Shown: positions 5,042 to 52,633, counted from the stretch's first letter. The stretch is 64,000 nucleotides of DNA from a virus (IMGVR_UViG_3300045988_089178), one strand, 5' to 3'. The notes: a model not told the origin generated them from the letters alone. Made by a program: numbers and translations.

Positions 5042-5317
5042 TTATTCCTCACTTAAATTATATCCAATAAGTTCCATACAAGGATTTATTAATCGCAATA
5101 ATATCTCTACTTCATCAATTACGAATTTTTCCTTCAAATCTCTACTTTTTAGAAATTCAGAATAACTAATACAATTTAGTCCAATAATTCCATATTGTTC
5201 TGCTTTAATTCTCATTGAGCGTGGATTGCTACATACAAAAATAGCATCATTATCTTTAGCATATTGCATTAGTTGATAGGTTTTTCCAGTACATCTGTTA
5301 CCAATAATTCTAAACAT
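5042..5317 (-). CDS. small P-loop NTPase
   Basis: Walker A GNRCTGKT; ATG overlaps the upstream TAA (taATG). Confidence 0.35.
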   Translation of the reverse strand: MFRIIGNRCTGKTYQLMQYAKDNDAIFVCSNPRSMRIKAEQYGIIGLNCISYSEFLKSRDLKEKFVIDEVEILLRLINPCMELIGYNLSEE

Positions 5318-6230
5318 TAAGACCCTCCGCGAGTAGTATTTAAACCAAAATCTTTCGTTTTATAAAACTCAATCCAATAAGTTTCTCTCTCATTTAAATT
5401 TTCCCTTGAAACTTCTTCTAAAATCTCAAAGGTAAAATTATGAACTCCAGATTTCTACATGGTAGAATATAGTTTATTGGTTGCTTTTCCGTAAGTTAAA
5501 GCAGATTTAATATGTTGTCTAAAACGTTCTTTTATATCAACTGACTATCCTATATAGGATTTCCCAGTGGTCAAATCAGTTATCCTATAAATCCCACAAT
5601 ATTTAATTGCTTTTGGGAATAACCGAGCTGTTAATATATCATAAGCTGGTTTATAATACACTTCCCATATTAACTTATCTATGCTTTCTTTTTTGACAAA
5701 TCTAGGTTGCAACTCACGCAATAATGTAATATCATTTATATCAATTTCATCAAGAGCTAAACGATAGTAATCTTGATTAGAGTCAATCTCTTCCTATCTT
5801 TGTTGAGCCTAAATATAAGCAAGTTGTTTAGCTTGTAAATCCGCTAATTTACTGGATTCGATAGAAATTTTATTTGATAAATCTTGACTTTTAGCATCAA
5901 AAGTCATAGTAAGCTCATTTTCTTTTTCTTCATAGGATTTTAAAAGTGCGGAAATGCGAATCTAGTATGCCTCATCAGCTTGCTTTTGTGCATTTTCCCG
6001 CATTTCTTCCTAAGATTTTACTAGAGAAGAAAGAATTTCATTTTCAGAGTATATATTTTCTTTTATATTAGATAATACTTCTCTATTATGTTTTATTTCC
6101 TATTCTATCTCTGAGTTTTTCCTCTAATTATCTATATTAACTTCAATTATTTGATGCTCTTGTTTCTTGAGATAATAGATATAAATTATTAACCCGATTA
6201 TAGTAATTAATAATAACCCTATAATCATAT
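5316..6230 (-). CDS. GIY-YIG endonuclease-like protein with N-terminal TM helix and coiled coil; at least 8 in-frame TAG
   Basis: Manual translation: MIIGLLLITIIGLIIYIYY...; C-terminal GIYRITDLTTGKSYIG[TAG]SVDIKERFRQH...ETYWIEFYKTKDFGLNT; starts just after terminator hairpin 6233-6266. Confidence 0.5.
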
Positions 6231-6232
6231 TT

Positions 6233-6266
6233 AAAAAATTCGGGGAGAGTTAACCTCTCCCCGAAC
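6233..6266 (-). terminator. rho-independent terminator
   Basis: cggggagag-gttaac-ctctccccg then T-run on minus. Confidence 0.6.
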
Positions 6267-13130: not shown

Positions 13131-13466
13131 TTAAATAGGACCATCGAGATCAATGGGAATATCATTAGAGGCTGAAAAATCTTCTGCGGGGATGTTATAT
13201 GCAGAATTGAATTCAGTTTCTTTTAAAGCTAGGTCATAAGTAATGCCGCCCTTTTTGTGATCTGATTTAGCCATTGCTAAATAAAAAGAACAAACTACTC
13301 CGTGGGCGCTCCATGGTAGACCAACAAGAGCACTAATCCATGGAAGGGTTCCTAAATATCCCATATAAACACACATAAATGCCAAAAGGATACCTGACAC
13401 AGTCACGACCCATAATAACATACGAATATCATTTATAAGTTTTTTGGAAAATTCTAATTTTTTCAT
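13131..13466 (-). CDS. holin-like membrane protein
   Basis: 111 aa, 2-3 TM helices, next to amidase. Confidence 0.35.
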   Translation of the reverse strand: MKKLEFSKKLINDIRMLLWVVTVSGILLAFMCVYMGYLGTLPWISALVGLPWSAHGVVCSFYLAMAKSDHKKGGITYDLALKETEFNSAYNIPAEDFSASNDIPIDLDGPI

Positions 13467-13693
13467 TTTAAACCCAGCTTTTCAGCCAATCTTCTTAACA
13501 TAGTTACAGTTTCTAATCTAGTGCAGAATTTATTTGGCATCATTCTTCCAGCACTGTCTCCAGCCATAATCCCATTCGCTTTAGCCCATTCAAGATTATC
13601 GGTGCCCCAAGTTTCTTTTTCATTAGCTTTATTAGTAAGCCAAGTATTCATAAGTTCAGCGAATTTCTCGTCAGTCATATCTTCATCATCCTC

Positions 13694-14341
13694 CTAGATA
13701 TTTGACATTAAATTATAAACATCTGTTCTTGCGGTTTCCATGCTTTTCCCAAATTTTGGAAACCAATGGTTTACATCTGCATGATTAGATCCTAATCCTA
13801 GCTTGTGACTATCAGCATGACATAAAATAGTCGGAACGGTGATACCATTTAAAGTAGTGGTTCCCAATGGATTTATGTTATACATTTTACATAAATAAGC
13901 AGTAATTTGACAAGCCTCTTCATAAATTTTGTTAAAATAATTTGCATCATTTAATCCATCTTCGCAAATTTCAAACTGAATCCATCCATTATTACAAGAA
14001 CCTTTAGACCCAGAACCGCATCCCCAAGGACGATAATTCCATGGCATTGTCTATACTGTTGTTACTGTTCCATCAGCCAATTTACCAATCCAACAGTTTA
14101 ATCCAGCTTGAACAGATATATGATTCCAGTCATTCTTGCTAGTATTTTTTCCTAATTTATTTATTAAACTGGTGTAGTTAGGATCATTATCGCTTGGCTA
14201 TACATATCTTTTTAAATTAGGATTATTTGCACCAGTACTATGCCATAAGATTCCTTTAACTTGCATGGTGCGTGTTTGTTTATAGCAAGTGCTATTTGTC
14301 ATCATACATTGAAGTGGTTTATTGCTATCGCTATATTTCAT
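13694..14341 (-). CDS. N-acetylmuramoyl-L-alanine amidase (amidase_2/PGRP-like) with in-frame TAG (14051-14053 and one upstream)
   Basis: RBS GGAGGTAATAAAATG; C-terminal region ...TILCHADSHKLG..NHADVNHWFP. Confidence 0.55.
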
Positions 14342-14872
14342 TTTATTACCTCCTTCAATTACATTTGAAATGTTAGCAAATTTATTATAATACTATTGAC
14401 CATAATTAGCTCTCTTTTGTTGCATAGAAAAACTCTAGTCTGAAGGTCTTTCAAACTAGAGTAATACTGCGGTAGAGGCTTCTGTGACAGAAGTGGCAGA
14501 AATCAAAATTTTAACTAAACTAGAAAAACTTGTAATTAACTCCTAATATAAAAAATCTAATTGAGTATTTAAATCTCCAATGGATTTACCTCGACTTTGA
14601 CAGAACTAAAGCAAATTTTGTTTTCTGCTCCAAAATGTCCATTGAGCCAATCCATATCCCGCCCCATCTTTTACAAAGTTTTTATACCTTCCATCATCAA
14701 CTGCGGAGGTATATCCTGCGTCGGTCATTTTTAATTTTTTTTCATAGGTGTTCTATAAGTTAATAGAATTAAGACCACTTTCGGCATAAAGATTACCCAT
14801 TAAACCGGCAATTCCGCAATCACTAAAACCTTTGCCTTTAAAGTATTTCCAAATAATTTGAGCATTAGTCAT
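14342..14872 (-). CDS. phage tail-lysozyme-like domain ORF; in frame with the downstream amidase; 6 TAG in the distal third
   Basis: MTNAQIIWKYFKGKGFSDCGIAGLMGNLYAESGLN...GYGLAQWT (Phage_lysozyme2-like pattern); no TAA/TGA before the amidase ATG. Confidence 0.4.
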
Positions 14873-14874
14873 TT

Positions 14875-15729
14875 TTATTTTTTTGTAATGAAAGAGCTAT
14901 ATCCAGCAGATTTTAATTTATCTTTTAGTCTTTCTGCATTTAATTTCACAGAGAAAGCACCTAATTGAACTTTATAAAAAATTCCTACTTTCTTGACATA
15001 CCCGCTAAATCCTTTCTCTTCCAATTCCTTTAACATATTCTCTGCATTGGTTTTAGATAGAAATGCTCCTACTTGAACTCTGTAAAGAACTACCTCTTGT
15101 TCTTTCTTAAAATATACACACATTACATTATCAACTGGTCTTGCATAAATTTGAGAAGTTTTTCTTTTCCCATCTATTAGTAATCTAGTAGATCCGCCTC
15201 CATCTAAATTAATAGCATATTCTACTTTCAATTCAAGAAAAATTTGCTATAGGGCAGCATAAACAAGACCTGGAGAATCTACGGTTACAATATAATAATT
15301 ATTTTTATTCCATCCAATACAAGTCCTGCGGGCTTTATAATCTAATTCTTTTCCATCTGTTATAACTACTTTTTTGCTATCTACAATTAATGCAGGATAA
15401 GCTGCGATAAAATCTCTAGCGGTTTCATAATCTTTTAATGTTGTATATATAAGTGTTTTATTGCCGCTAATTGCAACTCCATGGCGAAAATCAGACTAAA
15501 TAACAGTTCCTTCGTCTTTATAACTAAAGCAAGTGTTGCCATTATTCATGGCAAAGAAACCTCCATTAGTAATAATATCTGGTTTAGTAGCCTGTCTTTT
15601 ATAATAAGCATCTGGAGTTTCCGTCGGTTGATTGCATAAGGCAAAGTCAATTTTTTCAATGTCTGTGAAGGGAATTGTTACAATTTGAACATAAGAATAG
15701 AGACTATGTTTTTTGATACTATATCCCAT
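14875..15729 (-). CDS. DUF2233 phosphodiester-glycosidase-like protein with two C-terminal SPOR repeats; 2 in-frame TAG
   Basis: NLDGGGS motif; two repeats YRVQVGAF..KL.E.GF (SPOR). Confidence 0.5.
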
Positions 15730-15782: not shown

Positions 15783-17039
15783 TCAAATATATTCAGCTAT
15801 TTGCGCGATTCTAGATCTATAAATATTACGGAGTTCTACTTCACCGTATATATCTTGTCCTCTATAAACTTTAGAAACTCGTTTCATTCCATTGTTTATG
15901 CCAGCAAAATGAATATCATCAACTTGAGTTTTTTCATCGCCGTCAATGATACAAATGCAATCCTCTCCAATTCTTTGAAGAGCCAACTTAATAAGTGTAC
16001 GATCTAAATTCTGAGCTTCAGAAATGTATATACCTGCTCTTGAACCATTGGTATCATATCCTCTAATATCCGACATTGGTAGTAAAATTAATTTTTCTTC
16101 GCTCATAAGATGTTCTACTCCCGTTCTACCGCCGAATTTAGATATTAGGAGATTGCCGATTTGAGAGTCTAATAGTTTTTCATCTCTTGTTCCAGGCAGA
16201 AATCCTAATCTTGCACTATTGGCTGTGGCAACGGTATTGCAAAATACAATAATATGATCAAGTTCGCCTTTTTCTAGCTTAGACATTAAATAGGCTAAGC
16301 TAATAAATGTTTTACCAGATCCCGCAGGCCCTTTAATCAAGGTAACTTTATTATTAGATAAGCTATCAAAAAGTAATTTTTGGTAAATATCATTTTGATA
16401 TGGCTTTACTTTTCCAAACCAATTTGAATTAAAGTCATTATAATTTAAATATCTATGGTCGTTTCCAGTCCATACTCTCAAATCTACCACTTTATCATCC
16501 ATATCTCTTATAATGAGATATTCTCCAACATGAAGATTAAAATGATTCAGTTCTGGTTTTTGATAAAACTCTGTAAGATTCTCATCACTAGCAGAAATTT
16601 CTTTATATCCACTATAATTATCAGTTTCTTCTGGAATACTTTCTATCATGTCAGACCCGAAGAATAGATTTGCAATATGCTTTAGGCTTAAATCATTTGT
16701 TACAAAGATGACTTCATCCACTCTTTTATTATTATTATACCAAATTGCATCAGACAGTATCCTTGTATCATCCGTTACGTCAAGACACATTTCTTTAATA
16801 TAGTCTTCAAAATCTGTTTGATGGATTACTACTTCATACATATCAGGGTGCGTTTCAAATAAATGTAGCAATAATCTAGCTGAATATTTTATATCTGAAT
16901 CTTTATTGTTAGCGGTTTTAATTCTTTCCAATTCCTGAAAAGTAATTGATGATACAATAAATTTTTCATCATTATTGAATAAGCCTTCTCCGCATATCAA
17001 TAGTGAACAAGTATCATAGAACCGAATATCTTTATTCAT
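15783..17039 (-). CDS. phoH: PhoH-like ATPase with N-terminal PIN domain
   Basis: PIN-like N-terminus; Walker A LIKGPAGSGKTF. Confidence 0.7.
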   Translation of the reverse strand: MNKDIRFYDTCSLLICGEGLFNNDEKFIVSSITFQELERIKTANNKDSDIKYSARLLLHLFETHPDMYEVVIHQTDFEDYIKEMCLDVTDDTRILSDAIWYNNNKRVDEVIFVTNDLSLKHIANLFFGSDMIESIPEETDNYSGYKEISASDENLTEFYQKPELNHFNLHVGEYLIIRDMDDKVVDLRVWTGNDHRYLNYNDFNSNWFGKVKPYQNDIYQKLLFDSLSNNKVTLIKGPAGSGKTFISLAYLMSKLEKGELDHIIVFCNTVATANSARLGFLPGTRDEKLLDSQIGNLLISKFGGRTGVEHLMSEEKLILLPMSDIRGYDTNGSRAGIYISEAQNLDRTLIKLALQRIGEDCICIIDGDEKTQVDDIHFAGINNGMKRVSKVYRGQDIYGEVELRNIYRSRIAQIAEYI

Positions 17040-18369: not shown

Positions 18370-18933
18370 TCATAGCATCTCAATACACTCCTTTACCTTC
18401 AAGTTTATATCTTCAATGACCTTATCCAAGGATACCGGATAACAGTCATGAGAATCAACTCCCACATGATACATATAAGGTCTATCTTCAAAGAAATTAG
18501 TTCGCTGATGGGTGTGGCCATATAGATTAAGGGTCATCTGCTTAAGACTTTCTTTCTCAAGATTTCCAGTCAAAGTGGGGAAATGAGACATATAGAAGTG
18601 ATATTTCCTGTACTTAAGAGCAATAGCCCAAGCAGTTTCTACCACATTAGGAAGCTCGGCGTACATTTTCTTACGGCTATCCGTACAGTGGTTTCCAAAA
18701 GCAATGTGGAGTTTTCCATTCATAGAGGAAATAAACTCCTTGTTTCTCTCAAGACTATCTGCTCCACCGAGACAGAGATCTCCAAGAACATATACATCAT
18801 CTTCTGGAGTGACAATAGAGTTATGCCTCTCAACAAGAGCAATATTCATCTCTTCAACGGAGTTGAATCCACGAGGCTTATAGACAAACTCACGGTCATG
18901 TGAGAAGTGCCAATCCGAGGTTACGAAAATCAT
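18370..18933 (-). CDS. calcineurin-like metallophosphoesterase
   Basis: DWHFSHD...GDLCLGG...GNHC motifs; overlaps Pnk stop/start. Confidence 0.6.
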   Translation of the reverse strand: MIFVTSDWHFSHDREFVYKPRGFNSVEEMNIALVERHNSIVTPEDDVYVLGDLCLGGADSLERNKEFISSMNGKLHIAFGNHCTDSRKKMYAELPNVVETAWAIALKYRKYHFYMSHFPTLTGNLEKESLKQMTLNLYGHTHQRTNFFEDRPYMYHVGVDSHDCYPVSLDKVIEDINLKVKECIEML

Positions 18934-19463
18934 TTATCTCCCTCCTCCATGTTATGATGATTGATTTTTACATCCTTAAAGCCATACTTGTAGAGTTTAA
19001 ATTCTGCGGGAGTGGGAGGTCTAAAACCTCTAGCCATCTTTCTAATCGCGGAATCGGGTACTTTGGAAAATCCCTTTCTCAAGTTATTGCGGGCTATACA
19101 AGTATCAATCCCGCAATCACAAACTTCAAAACTAAGTCCAGTCTTCCCGTCCGGCCGCAACCTTCCTAATAACTTGGCTCTTGATCCTTGAGAGATATGA
19201 GTAGCATCAACAAAGATGTAGTCAATCCCAATTTCAAGGCACTCGTTAATTTGTCGAACGAACTCTTCAAATACTTCATTTTCTCGCGAGAAATAATCCT
19301 TATCTCCAATGAAACTTTCTCTTATCACATCGCGAGAAATAATAGCAGTATGAAAGCCATCCATTTCAAGAAGTTCGGCTTCTTTATTAGCCCAAGTTGA
19401 CTTCCCACTACCAGGTATACCAACCATGACTTTTACTTCGATAGTCATACTGCTTTCCTCCAT
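18930..19463 (-). CDS. pnk: polynucleotide 5'-kinase (T4 Pnk kinase-domain-like)
   Basis: [21 protein letters not shown] vs T4 Pnk [31 protein letters not shown] vs INRDDYRQSI. Confidence 0.7.
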   Translation of the reverse strand: [177 protein letters not shown]

Positions 19464-19526
19464 TCCTTAACTTTCTATATATATTATATTATATTTTTAT
19501 AATAATTTCAAAAGATTCTATGCGTC

Positions 19527-20393
19527 TCAAAATTCGACTGGTTGAATGAGGTCTTCGATATAAAGTCTACCTTCTTCCTTAAAAATAGGAATATTGAGAT
19601 CGACGAACCAATAATGTTTAAAATGGATTGAACCATCCTCTCTTTCGGTCTCTTCGCAGTCTTTTATGCAACAAGAACCTCTTTGTAAATAGACGGGCAA
19701 TTCATTCCAATCTATTCCTTTTTGAGAAATAAGCATTTCTAAAATTTCGCTACTACATTTACCTTGAAGTTCACTATGAGAAAAATTCGCTTGTCCAACC
19801 ATTTGAATAGAATTTCTAATAGCATCTAATTGGCGCCAATAAATTAGATTTGTTACTTCTTCTTTCGGAATATTGAAAACACGAGCATCAAACATAGCCC
19901 CTCTTGCGTTTGCTATCCGTAAAGTTCTCATATATTCTTGATGCTCAAGTTGAATTTCTACGCTCTGAGGAGTTAAAGAATTTTTCCAACCAATATCATA
20001 TCTTTCAATAGCTGAACGAAACACCTTATTAAAAATCATTGTTGCCATGGACGCTGCTACAGAACACATTTTTTGAACTTCATAATCAAACCATGCGTCG
20101 CTATTTAATTTTTTATAGTCAACAAGAATTAGAGTTATTTCATCGCTTTGAGTATATCCAAGAACACATCCTTGGATATTTTTACATAAATATTTCATTG
20201 TTTCTTGCATAGCCGAAGTCAATACCGCATCAAATGGTTTTCTAAAACCTTTAGTAAAGGTATGAAATGCTTTTCCATCAATTCTAATTGCTACAGGTGT
20301 TCTACGCATAAGTCGAGTTTTTGGAATTTGTTCATAGAACTCTTTCATGCGAGCGCCTAGCTGGTCATTCATATTATTCATCCTCCTTATCAA
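19527..20393 (-). CDS. Thg1-like protein (tRNA 3'-5' nucleotidyltransferase family)
   Basis: VAIRIDGKAFHTFT, LGYTQSDEITLIL and LIYWRQLDAIRNSIQ match the Thg1 motifs (RLDGRNFHRF / AYGQSDEYS / LSWRQADCHINN). Confidence 0.75.
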   Translation of the reverse strand: MIRRMNNMNDQLGARMKEFYEQIPKTRLMRRTPVAIRIDGKAFHTFTKGFRKPFDAVLTSAMQETMKYLCKNIQGCVLGYTQSDEITLILVDYKKLNSDAWFDYEVQKMCSVAASMATMIFNKVFRSAIERYDIGWKNSLTPQSVEIQLEHQEYMRTLRIANARGAMFDARVFNIPKEEVTNLIYWRQLDAIRNSIQMVGQANFSHSELQGKCSSEILEMLISQKGIDWNELPVYLQRGSCCIKDCEETEREDGSIHFKHYWFVDLNIPIFKEEGRLYIEDLIQPVEF

Positions 20394-21105
20394 CAGTAAA
20401 GATGTGTTCGTCGAAAGTATCCAAGTTTAGAAGAACAGTTTTTCCAGACATATAACTGCAACAGTCAATATCAACTTTATGATTATCACAATACCATAAA
20501 GCTCCACCATTATATGAGTAAGAGAACTGTCTATCTGGTGGTAGAAAATTATTCGCATTATCTAATCTTAGAATTAAGTATTCTGAAATTGGAGTATGGC
20601 CATGAACGCAAATTCCTTCACCTTCGGTAGTATCATAGATATGCTCTCTATCCCATAGCAAATCCTCGTTTGCTGGGAATGGTTCTTTTGCAGGAGTAAA
20701 ACCCGCATGACAAAGCATAATGGTTATTCCATTTTTATTCTTATATTCAAGATATAGGGGCAATTTTCTTAGATAGTGATACCATCCAGACTTAGCTCCA
20801 TCATTAATCCATCCATTAAAAGTAGAAGCTCCTCCATTCCAACAGAGAAGATCAAAATGACCTCCTCCATATGTTTCATATTTAATATAATCTTTCATAG
20901 CTTTAACAAGCATATCTTCGTGATTACCTTTAATATAGATAAAACGCGGATCCGACGCGACCGCTTTAATAGTTTCCCAAGACCGCGGACCTCGATCGCC
21001 GCAATCTCCTAGACAATAAACTTTATCTTCTGGCTTTAGAAAGTCACTAATTTTTTGATATAGCTCATACATACCATGAAGATCGCTAACTGCGTATACG
21101 CTCAT
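20374..21105 (-). CDS. PPP-family Ser/Thr phosphatase (lambda-phosphatase-like)
   Basis: GDCGDRGP and GNHE motifs. Confidence 0.6.
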   Translation of the reverse strand: MSVYAVSDLHGMYELYQKISDFLKPEDKVYCLGDCGDRGPRSWETIKAVASDPRFIYIKGNHEDMLVKAMKDYIKYETYGGGHFDLLCWNGGASTFNGWINDGAKSGWYHYLRKLPLYLEYKNKNGITIMLCHAGFTPAKEPFPANEDLLWDREHIYDTTEGEGICVHGHTPISEYLILRLDNANNFLPPDRQFSYSYNGGALWYCDNHKVDIDCCSYMSGKTVLLNLDTFDEHIFTVDKEDE

Positions 21106-21185
21106 AAATAAAACTCCCTTTCTTATATTATATAAATATTATATCATAAATATTATAAAAAATAAAGAGAGCTGTAAAGCTCTCT

Positions 21186-42351: not shown

Positions 42352-43413
42352 TTACTTTCCAATTACAACCTTATGATCCTCAGTTGGATCAATGGAAGCA
42401 GGTTGATAAACGAATACATCATAAGGAACCGCGGTAAATCCATTTGCTCCTTCTACTTGCACTGGTCCTTGCTTTACATAGCTAGAAGTTACATCTGCGT
42501 TCAAACTAGAAGTAATATTAGCTGCGGTAACTTTAAGCCCAGAAGATTGAGGAACTGCGATAATAATTCTCTTAGTATCACTTTTTGCTTTAATGCTATT
42601 AATAGTCATTGCGGCTGCCGCTTTATTGCTTGCTGTTAAAGAACGAATAATCGCGCTAGTTAAAGGATCTGTAGAATTATTAACTCCATAAAAAATCTAG
42701 CGATATCCAGTAATAGCTCCTGTGCTATTAGACTTAGATCCAGCTTTAATCTGTCCTTCTACATATTCAGAACCAAGATTTGTAACAGGAATAGCTCCAT
42801 TCCCATAATTAGCTGTTGCTGTAATCTTTAAATTAGTAGCATCTTCAACTTGAATTTCAGAGAAAGTTCCAGTAGCTTCTGTTTTTGTTTCTTCATCAAA
42901 TTGGACGCTCCAACCGGTTGCTGTAATTCCAGTGTCTGGGCCGTATTGATAAGATCCTTTATTTAAAGTTGCAGTATAAGTTGGAGTTACATTAGTGCCT
43001 GCTTCATACGCTTTCATTTGACTAGAGGAAATACTAACAGAAGGTTGCGTAATAGTAGGATTTTTTTCTTCCGCAAAAGCATCTAGCAGTAATTGATCTA
43101 ATGTTTTTCCAGTCGCGGGAATATTAACAGATCCATCTCCTCCAGGAGCATATTTACCAAAAGTATAGGTAAATGTAAAATCATCATCAAATTTTACAAT
43201 AGATGAATCAACTTCTACAATATCTTTTCCACCAGAATATTCTAACTAACCCCAAGTGCTTGTTCCATCACCATATTTTACTTTTCCTTTATTCTCGCCA
43301 TCGGTGGTAAGACAAGCCTCTCCAACGAGAGGAATAAAGGAGTCCTTAACTGAAGTCCAATTTTCCTCGGTATCATGTCTAAGTTGGATTCTAGTTTTTA
43401 ATTCATTGGCCAT
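42352..43413 (-). CDS. tail-fibre-like protein, in-frame TAG at 42697-42699 and 43249-43251
   Basis: N-terminal MANELKTRIQLRHDTEENW; RBS upstream. Confidence 0.45.
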
Positions 43414-43435
43414 CTTTAAAATGCCTCCTTATTTT

Positions 43436-44265
43436 AGTCTACTGCTGTCCCACAGTTTAATATTAAAGTAAAACCTTCAACATCCACTATTTTATCAAGT
43501 CCTACAGAATTAATTTCTCCGGTTCCATCTGAAAGTATTTTTATCTAATTATTCTAACTACTCCCCTTAATTAAACCAAGATTTTCTTCTGTTCCCGCCG
43601 GAATAGTAACTTTATTATCTTCAACCGGCAAATCTTTATTTCCGATAGAGATAGTTTCTATTACTTTATCCTAAGATATTGGAGTATACCACTCTAATGT
43701 GCCATCTTCTCTTTTTCTAATAGATTGCCCTGTTGATGCTTCTGCAAATCCTTTTAATGAAATCTGTCCAATTCCATCAATAACAATAGATTGATTGTCT
43801 ACATCAACATTTACCAAACTACTATTTATATATTTTAACTATTTCCACTCGGTGGCTCCATCTCCAATTTTTAACTTTCCAGTATCTATTTCAAATCCCG
43901 GCTCACCTTGACGAAGAATTGGATTTAATTCGGTCCACTTCTCTGATGTTCCTCGCTTGAACTAAAATATTGTTTTATAAACAACTTCAGCCAAAGTCAC
44001 TCCCTCCTTTAGCCAATTAGTCCGCCATCATAAATAATAGTTGTATCTTCTGGAGGAAGAGGCTAATCTCCGCCTCCACCAGAGTGCTACAACACCCATT
44101 CATGATCAGAATTGAAAATATATCTATTTCCATTTTCAATTACGTAGGCTGAACTGCCCGGCTTGCGGTTTTTAGGGAGATTAGCAACATCACTTTGGTA
44201 ATCACATAAAAAATGAACTGTACCATAAAAAACTTTATTATCTATATTTTTACCAATAGTAATCA
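43436..44265 (-). CDS. tail-fibre-like protein, very TAG-dense (at least 10 in about 276 codons)
   Basis: MITIGKNIDNKVFYGTVHF...; C-terminal LILNCGTAVD resembles the C-terminus of gene 39799..41136 (IIFNCGSSSTVI). Confidence 0.35.
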
Positions 44266-44359
44266 TACTTATTCTCCTTTCTTAAAGAAGTAGAGAAGAA
44301 AATTATCTCTCTTTATACTATATAACAATAATGACAAGAGATTTCACATAAATTGTCCA

Positions 44360-44465
44360 AGCCCCATTTTTGAAAGAAAAATTTGGTGGGCCTGCGCGAA
44401 CGGAAACTCGGAGCAGAACGAGGACAACAGAAAAGAGGGGCCAGCTTATGGCTAGCCCCTCTAGG
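44360..44465 (-). repeat. copy 2 of the ~55-bp GC-rich element, after terminator hairpin aggggccagc..gctagcccct
   Basis: tgaaagaaaaatttggtgggcctgcgcgaacggaaactcggagcagaacgagg; 2 mismatches vs copy 1. Confidence 0.6.
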
Positions 44466-44661
44466 GTAATCAAGGTTTTGCAGAACCTCAATCATACATA
44501 TTGCATTTATAAATGAAATATATATAAACACCGCTGCAACGATGGATGGTTGCGGGTATGAGAATCGAACTCATTCCTCAAGCCTTATGAGGGCTGCGAC
44601 TTAACCACTTGTCCTACCCGCAATATATAAAGCAGTTTTAAGACTTGCTTAGGTCTTTATA

Positions 44662-45783
44662 TTAAAGGTCAATATACTTATTGACTCCATAAATTGAAAC
44701 CTTAGTAAAGGTTGCATTTTCAACCCTTACTTTTTCGTTAAATTCCTTTCTAGCCTTTGCACTCTCTTCCTCAGTGGGGTAATCATAATCGAAAGCATCA
44801 AAATCACAATAGAAATTAGCATCTACGCCCATAAGTACGAGAGTACCATCCATAGATTTAATCTTTCCTGGATCAAAAGAAAGGTAGAAATCATTCTTAT
44901 CTTTTTTAAACCGAAGACACTGAACCTCTTTGGCATAAAGATCGAGATTATAATTATATGCAGTCATAACCCAACCATTAGTCAAACGAACATTAACATC
45001 AAAGAGAACACCTCTCTCATAGTTAATATTCAAATCCATTAAGGTTTCCTCCAAAGGATAACCTTGTTTCAAATCAAAAGCAATAGCCCTTAGGCTATCA
45101 TAAGTAATGTCCGCGACCTGCGACAACTTAACAACCTTTTCAATTTCCTCTTCCATACCGCTTCCAAGCGCATCCATCATATATGCCCGCACTTCATCCG
45201 CTGTAGGACAGCCAATCTCAAAATGATAGTGAAAACGACCAGGGCGATTGATAAGAAATTCGTTCAATTTTCTTGTATCGTTACAAGTGATAACAAAAAG
45301 TTTCTTTCCATTATCAATCCCATCAAATAGACTTAAAAGTCCTACCTGCGGATCGCCGTCATCATTCCTGGCAAAAGTCTTTTCAAACTCGTCAAAGATA
45401 ATAACAACTTCTTGTTCAATGGAACTGAGGAAATTACTAATTCCGGGAATAGGAGAATCGACTACAATCACTGGCATTTCTCGCTTGATCGCGGCATCCG
45501 CAATCATTCTTGCAAAAAGAGATTTGCCAATACCTTTCTTACCAGAAAGAATTATACCAAAGTTTCGCTCGGACTTATCGAAAGAGTTGAAAACTTTCTC
45601 TACCTTATGACTATGCGAGCCATAAACTTTTTCTTCGCCAATCTGCAAATTATTATGAACAGAAAGCCAAATTCCCATTTGGGGATGGAAACCGATTGTA
45701 TAGGTTCCGATTGGTAACTCTTTATAAGTTTTTACATCGTCACCATATACCTAAAAACGATTTCCTGTATGGACAATATTCAT
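44662..45783 (-). CDS. AAA+ ATPase, one in-frame TAG near the N-terminus
   Basis: Walker A SGKKGIGKSLFA; Walker B VVIIFDEFE. Confidence 0.5.
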
Positions 45784-45812
45784 CTATTTACTTCCTTTCC
45801 TATTGTTAGATG

Positions 45813-45900
45813 TGGTGGGCCAGGAGGGAATCGCACCCACTCGAGCTCGAAAGCACCGGTTTTACAGACCGGGGTGTCTACTTTAGCACTTTACTGACCC
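45813..45900 (-). tRNA. tRNA-Tyr (GUA)
   Basis: Loop CUGUAAA; long variable arm; acceptor GGGUCAG/CUGGCCC. Confidence 0.6.
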
Positions 45901-45917
45901 ATATATAAAAGAATTGT

Positions 45918-46006
45918 TTGGTCCCGGAGACGGGACTCGAACCCGTACGAGATTGCTCTCAGGGGATTTTAAGTCCCCTGTGTCTGCCAATTCCACCACT
46001 CCGGGA
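45918..46006 (-). tRNA. tRNA-Leu (UAA)
   Basis: Loop CUUAAAA; long variable arm; D-arm GUGGUGGAAUUGG. Confidence 0.65.
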
Positions 46007-46088
46007 TATTGCACATTTTTATGCTGAGTTGTGCTTCTCACCTTTCTCTTCTTCTTCCCCGGAGGATGAAAGTATCTCCGGTGTATTC

Positions 46089-46207
46089 GGCGGGGAGTGC
46101 AGGACTCGAACCTGCGACATCGTGCACCCAAAGCAAGTTAAAGATTGCTGTTACGGTCTTTAACAAGACCAAACTATAACGCGCTCTACCAACTGAGCTA
46201 ACTCCCC
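46089..46207 (-). tRNA. aberrant 119-nt tRNA-like element with a ~45-nt insertion between D-arm and T-arm
   Basis: Canonical acceptor GGGGAGU/ACUCCCC, D-arm GCUCAGUUGGUAGAGC, T-arm GCAGGUUCGAGUCCUGC; insert holds hairpins GGUCUU-GUUA-AAGACC and AGCAA-UCUUUAAC-UUGCU. Confidence 0.35.
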
Positions 46208-46366
46208 ATATAAACGATTTTGGATAAGGTTAATCGAGAACCTCGTCAGTGTGCTACTACGCCAAAGGCGAGCCCTGCAGGTTTACTCGCCACTCTTTAA
46301 ATGGTGGACGCTTTCAATCCTACATCCTGACAATAGAAGTCTTATTTACGATTTCTGTACGTATTG

Positions 46367-46441
46367 CTTCTATTACTGGCACCGCTTCTTCGTGTTGAAC
46401 GAAAACTTCTTGGTTCAGAGCCAAGCGTGCAGACCGCTACA
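46367..46441 (-). tRNA. tRNA-Gln (CUG)
   Basis: Loop CUCUGAA, G73, CCA encoded. Confidence 0.65.
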
Positions 46442-46444
46442 CTA

Positions 46445-46518
46445 AAGCGGTATATGGCAGCGGATAGAGGGGTCGAACCTCTAACAAGGGAGTCAAAGTC
46501 CCGCGTGTTACCATTACA
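46445..46518 (-). tRNA. tRNA-Gln (UUG)
   Basis: Loop CUUUGAC, G73, CCA encoded; 3 nt from the CUG isoacceptor. Confidence 0.7.
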
Positions 46519-46596
46519 CCAATCCGCTATAAATCAAGACGCATTAAAGAAAAGACTGTTTATCAGACAGTTGCGTAAACCATTCCGCCAAAATCG

Positions 46597-46660
46597 CTAA
46601 GCGCGATCCACAGGATTCGAACCTGCATCTTCTATTAAGAAGAATTTGCTGTATGCGTCT
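46597..46660 (-). other. tRNA-like fragment (T-arm + hairpin, no D-arm) after an ACAGCAAAU leader
   Basis: GCAGGUUCGAAUCCUGU T-arm; hairpin UCUUC-UUAAUA-GAAGA; no matching 5' acceptor strand. Confidence 0.3.
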
Positions 46661-46888
46661 TTATTTTACTTATATTTTAATTACACTCGCTGCTATATCG
46701 CAGTTGAACAAATCGTCATAAATCTTCTCTAAAGAAGCATCTTCATCAATGGTATATCCATTCAAAAGAGAATGTTTCTTTAGAGCTTCTTTTTCTGATT
46801 CAGCAGTAATCTTCTCTAACTTAATTTCATTTTCAAAGAAACTAAGAACTCCAACAACAAAATTCATAATTTTCTCCTAGACTTTAAG

Positions 46889-46964
46889 TGGTACCCGGTG
46901 ACGGGCTCGAACCGCCGACCTCCGCGGTGTAAACGCGATGCTCTCCCAGCTGAGCTAACCGGGC
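46889..46964 (-). tRNA. tRNA-Val (UAC)
   Basis: Loop UUUACAC. Confidence 0.7.
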
Positions 46965-47167
46965 ATTTAACTCAGAAAGATATTTTTAAATTCGTTCTCA
47001 AGCATAAAGAAAACTTCGCTCGCGCAACCACCTTTGCCGACTTGAACATAAGCAATCATAACATCTCCAGAGTCAGCATCGAAACCACGACAAATAGTCT
47101 TAACAAGACCATAAGGATTAGCTCGATAAAAGCAACCCATAGCAACAAAGTTATTCTTCATATTTAA

Positions 47168-47225
47168 GACTTCCTTTCTCAACTTTCTATAAATATTATA
47201 TCATTTATTTTTAATATTTTCAAAA
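47168..47225 (-). promoter_or_regulatory. conserved phage promoter/5'UTR module (copy)
   Basis: ctcaactttctataaatattatatcatttatttttaatattttcaaaag. Confidence 0.55.
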
Positions 47226-47430
47226 GTTTCTAAAGACTAGACTCAAAAGGGCTTGCCCCATATGCTCAACATTTTCTTGGCTTCCCTTCAAAAAGAAAAT
47301 GCTTCTTAGCTTTCTAAATAAGATTTATTTAGTAAAATCTTTTTATACAAGTATATTTGCATATATTTGCTGTATTGAGTCTATATATATAGGAAAGGAG
47401 TGATACATATTCTCGCTCTTAGGGAGCGAG

Positions 47431-47507
47431 TGGTCCGAGTGGTGAGACTCAAACTCACGGCCTCGTGATCCCAAATCACGCGTTCTAATCAACTGAACTA
47501 CACCCGG
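47431..47507 (-). tRNA. tRNA-Pro (UGG)
   Basis: Loop UUUGGGA. Confidence 0.7.
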
Positions 47508-47783
47508 ATATTAACTTAGGGTTTTTCGCACTTCCGCAGATTTCCATGCCTGGTCCTTATCGTTTCCTCTAGTGCTATACGAGGCACCGACCCTAAACCC
47601 TTCTGCTCTATGCCGGTTGTGTACTGATACCGGAAAACATCTTGGGGACTTTATTTTTTTACCTTCGTTGCTCCAATCCTCGAAGGGTATCTCGAAGTAT
47701 AGCTCTTCTATTTTACTGGCTCGGATTTAAGGCCCTACGATTTATTCTTACTGCCTTTCAGACTTGTATGTAAGATACCAATA

Positions 47784-47871
47784 TGGCGCAGAGAGTAGGA
47801 TTTGAACCCACGGATCTTTCGACCTCCTGCTTTCTAGGCAGGCGCCATAAACCAGACTCGGCCATCTCTGC
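47784..47871 (-). tRNA. Ser-type class II tRNA with unusual anticodon loop CUAGAAA (anticodon AGA)
   Basis: Ser-like D-arm GCCGAGUCUGGUUUAUGGCG, long variable arm, stem CCUGC/GCAGG. Confidence 0.5.
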
Positions 47872-47874
47872 ATA

Positions 47875-47951
47875 TGGTACGCCAGAGAAGATTTGAACTC
47901 CCACAAACCAGGGTCCGTAGCCCTGTGCACTCTCCGTTATGCTACTGGCGC
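47875..47951 (-). tRNA. tRNA-Arg (ACG)
   Basis: Loop CUACGGA. Confidence 0.65.
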
Positions 47952-48025
47952 ATATACTAGACCCATCATCTTTTTCTCCAGTTCAAACAACAGGTAAAGA
48001 GTTCTTTGCAGTACGGGTCTAAATT

Positions 48026-48478
48026 TTAATTACGAGTACGTAACCAATAATTTTTCATCTTGTAATTTGAATCATCCGTCACTTCAATAGCATCATCAAT
48101 AGGAAACTGATAGTCGCGGGCCTGCTCCTCTGATTCAAATTCAATTTCTGCATAGATAAAAGCTCCATCATCTACTACAGAAACCGTGAGCGGATACCCG
48201 CCGCAATTAAAAACGGAATAATTTTTCTTAATTGGAGGTTTACCGACAAAATCTTTTAGCTGATTGTAAAAATCTTCCGAAATTTCTGTTTCAATTTCTT
48301 CTCTTGTTAAAGAGCCTTCACCTTTTACGGTAATTCTAAAAGGCTCTTTACTTGCCGGGTTATGTCGTAATCGCACTTCTGGATTCGTCGAAACATAAAA
48401 TTGCTCTACCTGAGAATTTTTTACTAATCGAAATTCGGTAGGAACTCTTTGAAGAATCCACTTTCTTTCAATTTCCAT
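48026..48478 (-). CDS. CYTH-domain protein (triphosphatase-like)
   Basis: N-terminal MEIERKWIL (ExExK). Confidence 0.5.
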   Translation of the reverse strand: MEIERKWILQRVPTEFRLVKNSQVEQFYVSTNPEVRLRHNPASKEPFRITVKGEGSLTREEIETEISEDFYNQLKDFVGKPPIKKNYSVFNCGGYPLTVSVVDDGAFIYAEIEFESEEQARDYQFPIDDAIEVTDDSNYKMKNYWLRTRN

Positions 48479-48761
48479 ACGAATCCTCCATCAAATAATC
48501 TTCATCTTCATAAAGAGTGTCTTTTATAATAACACACTCATACTTATTATCTCTCTCCGCAGAAGCATCAAGAATGATTAAAGGCTCTCCTCCTACAGTA
48601 GTTTTGGAAAAAACTCTCGCAGCGATGTTCATCGCCTCCCAAGGAGAATTTGCTACTAAAAGAACATTCCGCTTAAACACTTTACTTTTTACTGTCTTTA
48701 ATTTAACTGAGACATTAAAAAAGTATTCCATAATAAATCCTTTCCTACTTTTATTATTAAC

Positions 48762-49087
48762 TGGTGGAGCCGGCGGGAGTCGAACCCGCGTCCGAAACAC
48801 CTATATAATTAAAGTCTTTTCACACGATAGTTAAACTTTATCCATTAAGTGGGATAGGCTTTAACAAACCACACTCCATTAAGCGTACTGGTTTACCTCC
48901 ACCACTTTGTTTAAGAGAGTAAACAAAGAAACTCAAGGGTTAAGCGGCGAGCTTAGCTCAAGCCGCAAGATAATTCTCGAAATAATCGTTGTCAGTTAAT
49001 TTTTGTTGCCCCTTAAGGGGGTGTGCATACCCGTGAACTTTAATCCTTCAATGCCCCGTCGAAACCTTTACGGCCCCATGTGACCCC
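48762..49087 (-). ncRNA. ssrA: tmRNA (ssrA)
   Basis: 5' GGGGCCGUAAAGGUUUCGACGGGG; 3' GGACGCGGGUUCGACUCCCGCCGGCUCCACCA; internal tag ORF ...DNDYFENYLAA ending in TGA. Confidence 0.7.
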
Positions 49088-49149
49088 TCTTGTTAATTAT
49101 ATAAGCAAAAGGGGTATATAACACTTCAAGAAATTTTGTCCTTGCGGAC

Positions 49150-49224
49150 TGGTGGGCCACCGAGGACTCGAACCTCGTCCCGTAGGGCTTCAACCTACTG
49201 CTCTGCCTGTTAAGCTAATGGCCC
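49150..49224 (-). tRNA. tRNA-Phe (GAA)
   Basis: Loop UUGAAGC. Confidence 0.7.
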
Positions 49225-49305
49225 ATAGGCTCTCTATGTGAGGCGATGCTCAACTCACAACCAAGACGCGCGCTCTTGTGTTTTCCACTTTTAAACTAAT
49301 AGAGA

Positions 49306-49382
49306 TGGTACCCCGTATTGGACTTGAACCAATGACCTACCGCTTAGAAGGCGGTTGCTCTTTCCAGCTGAGCTAACGGGGC
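49306..49382 (-). tRNA. tRNA-Arg (UCU)
   Basis: Loop CUUCUAA. Confidence 0.7.
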
Positions 49383-49913
49383 AAATAAGGAGCATTAAGC
49401 TACTCCAGCTTTTCTTGCTACTCTTGCAAGAATTTTATAGTCTGTACTATCTTCTGCAACCAATTTACATGGCTTTCCAATTAGAGCAAATAAACCAAGC
49501 AGACTACGAGCATCAACCATAATCATACCGTCATTAGAATGAACCCAAAGTACATCTGGAGTTTTACTCGCTACGGCATTTAGACGCTCAACATCACTTG
49601 TGCTTTTGATATTAATATCCATTACCATTTTATCGACCTCCTTTTATATTCTCCATGTACGAAACTCTTTGAACTGCTCTTCCAGATCTTGTTGATAGTT
49701 ATAAACTTCGAGAACCCGTTGCATATTTAAGCTATTAGTCCTATCAATAAGACTAATCGCTTCATTTCTATCAACTGCATAAATAGGGTAATCTTCAAAG
49801 GAAAATTCATCAACTGCAATAATGCAGTATTGATTGATACCATTATCACCACGGATTACCATATCGCGAACTTCTGCATAACTTGCTATAGACATGGCAC
49901 TCTCCCCTTTTAT

Positions 49914-49988
49914 TGGCAGGGCGAGTAGGATTCGAACCTACAGTCATGGTTTTGGAGACCATTGGTTTAGCCATTAACCGATCGCCCT
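49914..49988 (-). tRNA. tRNA-Trp (CCA)
   Basis: Loop CUCCAAA. Confidence 0.7.
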
Positions 49989-50227
49989 ATGTAAGCTGAG
50001 CGTCCCCAGCCCTAATCGAGTTACTTTGGAGCTGCTTCCACTGACGGGCGAACTCGATAAACAAAAGCCTTTTGTTCTACACTCTAGTCAAAGCAGCATG
50101 ACACCCTAGTGTAGCATGGCCTCTGTGGTCTTTGTCCCACAAAGAATTTTTCGAACCGAACTCTTTGCACATGATAGAATTTTGCGTTAGGTATTCACCC
50201 TGCCATCTATCAAGGCTGACATTCGGT

Positions 50228-50304
50228 TGGTGCTCCGAGGCAGATTTGAACTGCCGACCTCGCGATTATCAGTCGCGTATTCTAACCAACTGAACTACCG
50301 AAGC
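50228..50304 (-). tRNA. tRNA-Ile (GAU)
   Basis: Loop CUGAUAA. Confidence 0.7.
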
Positions 50305-50531
50305 ATATAATAGGTTCGTTTCGGCGTCACCCGCATTGAGGAGAACCATTTCCCCAGTCTGAGGCCTTAGGGCATACCTCGACGACAGCCCAGCGTTATG
50401 TTCGCCAACAGAAAGTTTTTTGACACCCGGCTCATCACTTTCAACCTTTCCGCCGAAGAATGGCGTGGCTTTCCTTTATACGCCTCCGAGGAGGAGCTTC
50501 CCGCAGTCTATTCGCCCCCGGCTACGAGGGG

Positions 50532-50607
50532 TGGAGCAAGATACCGGATTTGAACCGGCCCTTTCTGCTTGGAAGGCAGACGTGCTAGCCGCTAACACTA
50601 ATCCTGC
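50532..50607 (-). tRNA. tRNA-Gly (UCC)
   Basis: Loop CUUCCAA. Confidence 0.7.
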
Positions 50608-50876
50608 ATATGGTAGTTTCCCTGTTTTTTAGAGGTACTACCTAACCCAAGTCGACTTTGTCGTTTGTTCACAGATAACCCGCTCAAACAAAACAAACCA
50701 AAATGCGGAGATGAACGAAATTGTTTTCTTCTTCTTGAATCAGAGAATCGTCATCAAGTTGTCCCTAAGTCATGCAGTCTTCGTAACGCCAGACTACCAG
50801 AAACGCTACTCGGTTTAACCTTGACTGAAAATTCTTGTGCACAGAATAACAGTTGTGTCTCACTCAAGAGTAGAAA

Positions 50877-50953
50877 TGGTGCGTGTGGCGAGATTCGAAC
50901 TCGCGACTCCCTGCTTAAAAGGCAGGTGCTCTAGCCTACTGAGCTACACACGC
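50877..50953 (-). tRNA. tRNA-Lys (UUU)
   Basis: Loop CUUUUAA. Confidence 0.7.
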
Positions 50954-51471
50954 GACTGTAAACTTTTAAAGTTCACTTAGGATATTATCGAGAATCTTTT
51001 CAAAATCTTCATCCTCAACATAGAACATCTCATTCATAGTTTTACGATCAGTAAGAGAATGATCTGCATTATATCTACAAACTAGTACTTCAAGAAATTG
51101 CCAAAAGCGCAGATTTGGATTAGTCTTTCGCCAAATAACCTCAATCTTATTAGCAATACTAGAAATGCGATTTGCGTCTCTCACACTTAATCCTCCTCTA
51201 GCCACATATCTTCACTAAACAATTCTCGATATTTGTCATCATCGACAATTAACTGTCTACATCTGCGGGCTTCAGGCTTTGCGTCGTATCTATCAAGAAA
51301 TTTAGCATCATCAGTCAAGAACCCTTGCACTAAATCTTCTTTATCCCATTCATACCCCATCTGATATGCTTCTTCGAGGCAATCTGCATGGCGCTTCCCG
51401 CAAATAATTACAGGGTACTTACTAAAGTGAGGAATAAATTTAATTGCAGAAGCAATAATCATAACTCAAAA

Positions 51472-51535
51472 CTTCCTTTCCTTAACTTTCTATATATATT
51501 ATATAATAAAAATTAAGAATTTTCAAAAAGATTTT
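51472..51535 (-). promoter_or_regulatory. conserved phage promoter + 5'UTR module (TTGAAA-N17-TATAAT-ATATATAGAAAGTTAAGGAAAGGAAG)
   Basis: Minus strand cTTTTTGAAAAttcttaatttttatTATATAATatatatagaaagttaaggaaaggaagttttgagttATG; near-identical copies at 19461-19510, 29944-29996, 39466-39530, 47168-47225, 55441-55500, 56041-56100, 60538-60600. Confidence 0.6.
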
Positions 51536-51739
51536 TATGCTTGAGTTTTCTATTAAAGGAACCTTTTCCTTTCTTTGCTCTTGTTATAGAACCTCTCTGT
51601 TTAAAATGAAGATATTCTTGCAGCTCTTCTGGAGATTTCTTTTGAGCCTGCTTTATAGTTTTTAAATTCATTTTACTAGACCCCTTTTCATCTTATTATG
51701 TACCAAAAACATATGATTTAAAGTTGCTGAATAGGTCTA

Positions 51740-51817
51740 TGGGGTGTACGACGAGACTTGAACTCGCACCTCTCAGAGCCACAATCTGATGCTCTACCAA
51801 TTAAGCTACGCACAACA
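51740..51817 (-). tRNA. tRNA-His (GUG) with encoded G-1 and apparent U1:C72 mismatch
   Basis: Loop UUGUGGC; 5' G-UUGUGCG, 3' CGUACAC-C-CCA. Confidence 0.6.
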
Positions 51818-52032
51818 TATTGGCAATAGATTTTAATATCGGGTATCGGCACGTAAGCCTTTGGCCTTCGATTGGCGGTACAATCTCCGGCGTCCCTATC
51901 TAACCCTATCCGACTCCGCTAACTTCCATAGCGCATACGGACTGCTTGGTAAAGTGGCCACAATGCCTCGCAGGTAGGAATAATATTCCTTTGCCGCATT
52001 TGCGTTTGTCACGCTAAAGCCCTTTTTGGGCA

Positions 52033-52107
52033 TGGAGCTGGCGACAGGGGTCGAACCTGCAACCTAGTGATTACAAATCACTTGCGCTACCATTGCGCCA
52101 CGCCAGC
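52033..52107 (-). tRNA. tRNA-Thr (UGU)
   Basis: Loop UUUGUAA. Confidence 0.7.
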
Positions 52108-52540
52108 ATATAAATGGCCGATATTCGCCTCGGCTCGGGCCCAGAAGATAAAGTCTTGGTATATACCCCAAGAGGTATTGACAGCGTGCTGTTCCAAACT
52201 ATACACCAGCCGCCAGCCATAGCCGGCCGCATGGGGCTCGAACCCAATTTCCTCTGTCATCAAGAGTTTTTTTGTAAACTCACGGTTTTGGCCTTCTCTT
52301 CCCCATAGGCTCCCGCAGCAGTACCGAAAAACTTGACGAGATTATATTGAAGTTGTTTTTGTCTCATTGAGACCGGCAGGCGGCTATACTTCCAAACCTT
52401 CACAAGCCCTATTATTTCGTTAATCGCTTGTATTGTCACCGCAAGCAAACGGAACTACTTAGTCGGTTTTCGTAGTTGACACAATAGCCTCGTTTATATG
52501 CGGCCGGCATATATAACAGTGTCTTATCCCGATTGGCTAT

Positions 52541-52633
52541 TGGCGAAGGGGAGAGGATTCGAACCTCCGGACCGTGTTTCCACAATCAAGGGATTAGCAA
52601 TCCCTCGCATTCAACCTACTCTGCCACCCCTCC
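52541..52633 (-). tRNA. tRNA-Ser (GCU)
   Basis: Loop UUGCUAA; long variable arm. Confidence 0.7.

Follow-up and report, generated by a model that had tools for sequence, protein, structure and literature searches.

A predicted bacterial-type Thg1-like protein encoded among tRNA and candidate RNA-repair genes in an uncultured gut phage

The Thg1-like gene and its product

Here we describe a gene for a Thg1-like protein (TLP) in a 64,000-nucleotide stretch of viral DNA (IMGVR_UViG_3300045988_089178; hereafter the window), together with the tRNA-His gene and the RNA-processing genes that share the window with it. An earlier note had placed a Thg1-like gene of a phage at 19527-20393, with all three Thg1 signature blocks, and each of these statements is confirmed by what follows. 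The open reading frame (ORF) is present there on the minus strand as a mechanical translation gives it, with 288 amino acids starting at TTG 20393. As read from the sequence, translation most likely begins at ATG 20372, which yields 281 amino acids, because it follows an AAGGAGG motif 9 nucleotides upstream and lies one base past the stop codon (20376-20374) of the preceding gene, and because database gene calls, including that of a 99%-identical protein, likewise have 281 amino acids. The phage context is correct, as the window matches parts of an IMG/VR viral contig of 146,360 bp at 100% identity.

Taken together, sequence comparison and structural modelling place the product unambiguously in the Thg1 family. 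A Thg1 profile search, the check proposed in the earlier note, returned Pfam PF04446 at 101.9 bits (cutoff 29.2; E = 3.2e-29), covering profile positions 3-130 of 130, with an additional weak, sub-threshold Pfam match to Thg1C. PHROG 4717, 'tRNA-His guanylyltransferase', was matched at E = 8.2e-87, and NCBIfam held no model matching the protein. Its best solved relative is the TLP of Bacillus thuringiensis (BtTLP; PDB 4kgk, E = 1.3e-57), and more remote matches include an archaeal TLP (5axk, E = 8e-12) and fungal and human Thg1 chains (E = 3e-8 to 2e-6). An AlphaFold2 model built with 26 homologs reached a mean predicted local distance difference test (pLDDT) score of 84.8 and a predicted template-modelling (pTM) score of 0.85. 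When this model was compared with the PDB using Foldseek, all 32 matches with E ≤ 0.001 were Thg1 or TLP chains, with BtTLP at the top (TM score 0.84, target-normalised), in agreement with the polymerase-like palm fold of Thg1/TLP structures.

The three signature blocks read R30-I-D32-G-K-A-F-H37, Q-S76-D77-E78-I and W-R-Q-L-D-A-I-R-N-S-I-Q-M191 in the 281-residue numbering. R30, D32, K45, D77, E78 and M191 align with BtTLP R28, D30, K43, D75, E76 and M158, residues that structural and mutational work has assigned to metal binding, activation and nucleotide binding (PMC3701042). D32, D77 and E78 are the counterparts of the three Thg1 carboxylates, which in human THG1 are D29, D76 and E77. The catalytic motifs do not vary among 26 homologs that are 64-88% identical, nor in clades as distant as ~42% identity, a pattern that argues for purifying selection on activity.

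In eukaryotic Thg1, the HINNLYN motif mediates recognition of the GUG anticodon of tRNA-His (PMC6471195). The aligned segment is D-A-I-R-N-S-I in the window protein and D-A-S-K-N-S-I in BtTLP, against D-C-H-I-N-N-L-Y-N in human THG1; because HINNLYN is replaced by AIRNSI, as in BtTLP, the motif identifies the protein as a bacterial-type TLP rather than a eukaryotic Thg1. The yeast and human enzymes share its fold and catalytic core (E ~1e-7; Foldseek E ~1e-13), but they add a non-templated G-1 opposite A73 and read GUG through HINNLYN, whereas the window combines a TLP lacking that motif with a tRNA-His that has C73 and an encoded G-1. BtTLP (PDB 4KGK/4KGM) is closest in sequence (E 1e-57) as well as in structure, has the same metal-binding carboxylates, activating lysine, arginine and TLP-type methionine, and also lacks HINNLYN. 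All characterised bacterial and archaeal TLPs are strictly templated in their 3'-to-5' addition and restore tRNAs of several identities that have lost 5' nucleotides, and BtTLP adds a -1 nucleotide by templating (PMC3701042, PMC6471195). By homology, we infer the same chemistry for the window enzyme, strictly Watson-Crick templated 3'-to-5' addition, and would expect the same preference for 5'-truncated tRNAs.

The window enzyme differs from BtTLP in being phage-encoded, in having an identity of only ~38-47% over the aligned parts and in carrying ~31 net extra residues. Residues 121-158, which are unmatched in the alignment to 4kgk, form an insertion whose length and sequence differ among phage TLPs and which is missing from BtTLP and from the TLP of Bacillus phage Bc431v3; the AlphaFold2 model has confident helices at 94-130 and 138-157 in this region.

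Thg1-like genes of this kind are widespread in large phages. At least 8,000 relatives were found in the protein database at E < 1e-10, and 265 pattern-matched hits were found in IMG/VR, mainly on contigs of 100-160 kb. GenBank holds 161 phage records with a homolog (100 of which could be viewed individually), among them phages of Bacillus (46), Prevotella Lak phages (15), phages of Caulobacter (13) and of Mycobacterium (11), and many jumbo phages; among the matches listed, most are annotated as tRNA-His guanylyltransferase. Phage TLPs were pointed out in Bc431v3 (2013 paper) and in Bacillus megaterium phages (2018 paper), and Thg1 is listed with the RNA-repair enzymes that occur sporadically in jumbo phages (Iyer et al. 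2021), whereas a specialist review of the Thg1 family makes no mention of phages (PMC6471195). The family is thus already annotated in many large phages, of which the window gene is a further member, and the earlier description of phage TLPs as little documented holds for their biochemistry, of which our literature search found no study for any phage TLP, but not for their annotation. The PHROG 4717 members Bc431v3 gp143, Bacillus phage G gp378 and the Fusobacterium phage Fnu1 protein all bear the name 'tRNA-His guanylyltransferase', the function of none having been characterised. They resemble the window gene in family and in their large, tRNA-rich genomes, which are a consistent feature of TLP-bearing phages, but differ in gene neighbourhood, and the window protein is only 41-47% identical to members from cultured phages.

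The phage itself belongs to a large uncultured gut clade found only in metagenomes, and the window has no nucleotide-level relatives among cultured phages. The closest cellular TLPs, at 54-70% identity, come from Clostridia genomes and metagenome-assembled genomes (MAGs). This, together with strong Shine-Dalgarno use and a weak SLH-domain match in the endolysin, suggests a Firmicutes host.

Table 1. Features of the window discussed in the text, by subject
Feature	Coordinates	Strand	Remarks and basis
TLP coding sequence	19527..20372	-	281 amino acids, stop TGA; PF04446, PHROG 4717, PDB 4kgk, AlphaFold2/Foldseek
Shine-Dalgarno AAGGAGG	20382..20388	-	9 nucleotides upstream of ATG 20372; within 3' end of upstream phosphatase gene; read from sequence
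Lineage-variable insertion, residues 121-158	19899..20012	-	Relative to B. thuringiensis TLP; predicted helical hairpin
tRNA-His(GUG)	51740..51816	-	Encoded G-1 (51816), U1.C72 mismatch, C73, encoded CCA; ARAGORN, Rfam and acceptor-stem parsing
PhoH-PIN protein	15783-17039	-	
Second metallophosphoesterase	18370..18933	-	Overlaps kinase stop codon; Pfam Metallophos_2 28.8 bits, PHROG 547 E 1e-42
P-loop kinase, PSTK/KTI12/polynucleotide-kinase type	18930..19463	-	Downstream of TLP; Pfam AAA_33 E 5e-14, KTI12; PHROG 505 'polynucleotide kinase'
Promoter-like site TTGAAA-17-TATAAT (11 of 12)	19483..19511	-	Between TLP and kinase; consensus scan
Lambda-phosphatase/ApaH-like metallophosphatase	20374..21105	-	Pfam Metallophos E 1e-11; PHROG 246; PDB 1g5b lambda phosphatase E 7e-10
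Terminator-like hairpin and T-run	21163..21188	-	Upstream of phosphatase-TLP pair; consensus scan
NAD+ salvage block	21186-25745	-	NadE, NAMPT, unassigned ORF, YqeY, Prs (PRPP synthetase), isochorismatase/nicotinamidase-like
ATP-dependent RNA ligase	26784..28055	-	Pfam RNA_ligase 35.3 bits (cutoff 27); PHROG 968 E 9e-49
RNase T-like exonuclease	28406-29230	-	
Metallophosphoesterase and nucleotidyltransferase	30011-30775 and 30762-31565	-	PHROG 1649 and 388
PHROG 850 'RNA-binding protein'	35447..36967	-	PHROG 850 E 1e-120
tRNA array	37212-55732	-	31 tRNAs and a tmRNA
tmRNA	48762-49077	-	Tag DNDYFENYLAA
Suppressor tRNA(CUA)	38271-38346	-	Unpaired 1:72, G73

Gene neighbourhood

All genes of the TLP region lie on the minus strand (Table 1). 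The gene immediately upstream codes for a lambda-phosphatase/ApaH-like enzyme, which we regard as a candidate RNA-end healing enzyme, and the phosphatase and TLP genes are coupled in translation. This pair stands between a terminator-like hairpin on its upstream side and a promoter-like site on its downstream side. The promoter-like site weakly suggests two transcription units, phosphatase-TLP and kinase-phosphoesterase; such sites overall are no more numerous than expected from shuffled sequence, making the one downstream of the TLP weak evidence. The kinase of the second unit matches seryl-tRNA(Sec) kinase in the PDB at E 2e-9 and T4 Pnk at E 0.008.

Further upstream, an ATP-dependent RNA ligase lies 6.4 kb from the TLP and is taken as context, a part of the same RNA-repair complement that need not act with the TLP. 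A phosphoesterase-nucleotidyltransferase pair, homologs of which occur near the TLP in seven other loci (L163, L178, L195, L209, L300, L305 and L310), and a PHROG 850 protein that is probably Ro/TROVE-like, with homologs near the TLP in L163, L173, L188 and L300, precede the tRNA array; no Y-RNA-like partner for the Ro-like protein was found at Rfam gathering thresholds. The phosphoesterase-nucleotidyltransferase pair, RNA ligase, Ro-like protein and kinase recur near the TLP in other lineages, in varying gene order.

The window thus brings a kinase, a phosphoesterase and an RNA ligase into one region, as do the T4 Pnkp/Rnl1 and bacterial Pnkp/Hen1 repair systems, and its enzymes might plausibly heal broken tRNAs as well. 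Those systems, however, reseal breaks in the anticodon loop and contain no 3'-to-5' polymerase, whereas the parts encoded in the window are separate small proteins, matched below cutoffs, in an arrangement kept in one lineage only. A tight operon of TLP, kinase and phosphatase was considered and ruled out, the arrangement being lineage-specific: among the best 80 loci, only L001-L005, the nearest relatives, have the phosphatase gene directly beside that of the TLP.

Immediately upstream of the phosphatase and TLP genes comes an NAD+ salvage block, which is kept in related lineages; it could plausibly counter NAD+-depleting host defences.

Phage tRNA-His and the possible roles of the enzyme

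The phage tRNA-His bears the two features that the earlier note had ascribed to it, an encoded G-1 and a U1.C72 mismatch, although the end given there, 51817, lies one base past G-1. ARAGORN and Rfam both place the gene at 51740-51815 on the minus strand, and the next base, 51816, is the G that faces C73. Directly 5' of nearly every tRNA in the window array and in the arrays of L085-L129 stands the triplet T-A-T (28 of 30 window tRNAs have T at -1), presumably as a 5'-processing signal, and in tRNA-His this leader immediately precedes G-1. Some pairs of tRNAs are spaced by TAT alone (46451/46455; 47871/47875).

To follow this tRNA through relatives, we retrieved the tRNA-His genes of 50 related contigs, anchoring the retrieval on a conserved ATPase encoded within the tRNA array. 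U1.C72 is shared by the window, L082 and L088, three contigs that are not identical to one another, and other lineages have U1:A72 or U1.U72, with U1 conserved while position 72 drifts among C, A and U. A tRNA-His of this U1 type, with encoded G-1, U1 and a variable position 72, recurs in the window, L084/L087, L107, L108, L113 and L127, and in several independent lineages the 1:72 pair beside G-1:C73 is weak or absent. Bacillus phage G, Burkholderia phage FLC9 and contigs of L116 and L265 combine a TLP with an ordinary G1:C72 tRNA-His that encodes G-1. In a sibling clade of at least eight syntenic contigs, with a TLP 65% identical to that of the window, the gene instead reads CAT followed by GTGGCTG...C73-CCA, with T at -1; G-1 is not encoded, and the leader consensus puts the cut directly before G1.

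Genes of tRNA-His near the TLP itself are rare: within 10 kb on either side of the TLP in 200 related loci, the only one is that of L265, with G-1 encoded. The 40-kb TLP neighbourhoods of Bc431v3 and Fnu1 contain no tRNAs, and when the tRNA-His of phage G was used as a BLAST probe to locate tRNA-His in Bastille-like Bacillus phages, no match was obtained.

We favour, at a probability of about 0.5 and by homology with characterised relatives, a functional bacterial-type TLP that serves general tRNA 5'-end repair or quality control within a translation and RNA-repair toolkit. Such an enzyme would activate an RNA 5'-monophosphate with ATP or GTP and would then add nucleotides in the 3'-to-5' direction, reading the acceptor-stem 3' strand, C73 included, as Watson-Crick template. 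Phage or host tRNAs truncated at the 5' end would be rebuilt in this way, and on tRNA-His G-1 would be restored opposite C73. The TLP would be one part of a set that comprises 31 tRNAs, the tmRNA, the RNA ligase, the kinase, the phosphoesterases, the nucleotidyltransferase and the Ro-like protein.

Several points weigh against this reading. No host defence that shortens tRNAs from the 5' end is known to us, and because G-1 is already encoded in the tRNA-His of the phage, the maturation of this tRNA does not obviously call for a TLP. Of the best 80 loci, only about 19, those of the window lineage and the sibling clade, keep the neighbourhood, and in some 50, at ~62% TLP identity, the TLP lies elsewhere with none of the window neighbourhood around it. 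Across 120 diverse viral TLP loci, ~30% carry in their flanks a homolog of any of 14 window neighbours, NAD+ salvage genes included, a figure that has no null model and is suggestive only. The kinase and phosphatase assignments stay below NCBIfam family cutoffs, both for the kinase (PSTK and bacterial Pnkp models) and for the phosphatase (ApaH and PP-phosphatase models, all matches). Finally, bacterial TLPs as a group have no known physiological substrate (PMC3701042, PMC6471195), and the one that the window enzyme might have is speculative.

As it stands, the result is the correct annotation of a family known in phages. Phages that carry a TLP beside dozens of their own tRNAs and RNA-repair genes are nevertheless a tractable place to seek the function of bacterial-type TLPs, and the uncultured gut clade that carries this one is abundant.

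The maturation or maintenance of tRNA-His in particular, with G-1 added opposite C73 on host tRNA-His or on phage tRNA-His miscleaved by RNase P at +1, is possible but unlikely. C73 is present and able to template G-1, BtTLP adds just such a templated -1 nucleotide (PMC3701042, PMC6471195), miscleavage at +1 is conceivable beside an unpaired 1:72, and the sibling clade, with T at -1 and C73, cannot encode G-1. The window tRNA-His, however, encodes G-1, and its TAT leader stands directly before that base, so that RNase P is predicted simply to leave G-1 in place; most sampled TLP-bearing lineages encode G-1 as well. Moreover, T at -1 with C73 is also found in T5, in the T4-like Serratia phage CHI14 and Klebsiella phage KP185, in Streptomyces phage Faust, in Synechococcus phage S-CRM01 and in the crAss-like Bacteroides phage DAC15. 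T5-like and T4-like phages are clearly TLP-negative, abundant groups that are absent from the organism tallies, whereas the TLP status of Faust, S-CRM01 and DAC15 is uncertain, these being absent from the matches listed (100 of 161). A tRNA-His without encoded G-1 in T5 and T4-like phages implies that this condition is common without a TLP. Escherichia coli, a host of such phages, also lacks a TLP, and one possibility is that these phage tRNAs keep U-1. We therefore set aside the idea of a TLP that compensates for a missing encoded G-1, which TLP-less T5-like and T4-like phages lack too and which phage G, FLC9, L116 and L265 encode; in this small and arbitrary sample, a dependency between TLP and G-1 finds no support. 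The combination of T at -1 and C73 was also seen in L089-L100, L102, L125, L126 and L129.

General 5'-end repair could also take a more elaborate form, which we consider rather doubtful: a pathway in which the TLP, the coupled lambda-phosphatase-like enzyme, the PSTK/Pnk-like kinase and a phosphoesterase together counter a host nuclease or 5'-to-3' exonuclease acting on the 5' strand of the acceptor stem, with the weak 5' end of the phage tRNA-His perhaps one target. If true, bacterial-type TLPs would gain a first demonstrated physiological role, and the conflict between phage and host over tRNA would have a new arm.

Decidedly improbable, in our view, is a substrate other than tRNA, such as the tmRNA, a tRNA-like RNA bound by the Ro-like protein or the 5' ends of phage transcripts, or a role outside repair altogether. 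Dictyostelium TLP4 does act on non-tRNA substrates (PMC6471195), and the window has both a tmRNA and a probable Ro/TROVE-like protein, the genes for which also lie near the TLP in four other loci, but nothing points to any specific alternative, and the consistently large, tRNA-rich genomes of TLP-bearing phages speak for tRNA.

The earlier note had gone further and proposed the U1.C72 tRNA-His as a possible substrate for 5'-end editing or repair. In dedicated editing, a nuclease would remove G-1 and U1 and the TLP would rebuild G1 and G-1 on C72-C73. The mismatch is real, a 3' end of C72-C73-C74-C75 would template the addition of G residues, and amoeba mitochondrial TLPs edit in this way (PMC3701042, PMC6471195). 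Several observations nonetheless make dedicated editing very unlikely. In contig 093451, whose TLP is 87% identical, position 72 is A and forms a perfect U1:A72 pair, yet the TLP is kept; the conservation of U1 beside a varying position 72 is the opposite of what a template on the 3' strand predicts; and other TLP-bearing phages have the normal G1:C72 pair. In each of three groups, few tRNAs are mismatched in the first three acceptor pairs (7 of 82 in clade A, 8 of 161 and 7 of 229), and the mismatches fall almost entirely at 1:72 of the suppressor tRNA(CUA), the initiator tRNA and tRNA-His; in clade A, all 7 are at 1:72 and none at 2:71 or 3:70. Mitochondrial editing in Dictyostelium (TLP3) and Acanthamoeba likewise pairs a TLP with tRNAs that have encoded 5' mismatches, but there many tRNAs are mismatched at positions 1-3, whereas here the mismatches are confined to three tRNA types at 1:72 and are not conserved. 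No candidate 5' nuclease was identified, and the TAT leader predicts an ordinary 5' end. We turned the proposal down mainly on account of A72 in the close relative and the rarity of 5' mismatches, and it finds no support in the relatives.

That the gene is a functionless passenger recently taken from a Clostridia host can be set aside almost entirely: its closest cellular homologs are indeed clostridial, but its catalytic residues are invariant, it is conserved over hundreds of viral contigs in several diverged clades, and it has a strong Shine-Dalgarno sequence and translational coupling to its neighbour.

TAG recoding and irregular tRNA genes

Several ORFs of the window are long only if TAG is translated, and TAG appears to be read as sense in a subset of genes, all on the minus strand (5317-6249, 13463-14917, 25826-26704, 41162-42370 and 43434-44027). 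With its 10 in-frame TAGs read as glutamine, 13463-14917 yields a full endolysin (Phage_lysozyme2 E 4e-35, Amidase_2 and the weak SLH match), and the suppressor tRNA(CUA) of the array looks glutamine-like. The TLP gene has no in-frame TAG. We take this recoding to resemble that reported for lytic genes in gut phages.

Three further tRNA genes on the minus strand are irregular. At 46091-46207, Rfam matches a tRNA of 117 nucleotides (49.8 bits) that ARAGORN missed, with an insertion of ~40 nucleotides after the anticodon stem and a 3' end of CCG in place of CCA. In the tRNA-Asn at 55046-55122, two neighbouring pairs midway along the acceptor stem (4:69 and 5:68) are mismatched, and a second tRNA-Leu(CAA) at 55521-55594 has no CCA and pairs poorly in its acceptor stem; both of these may be degenerate tRNA genes.

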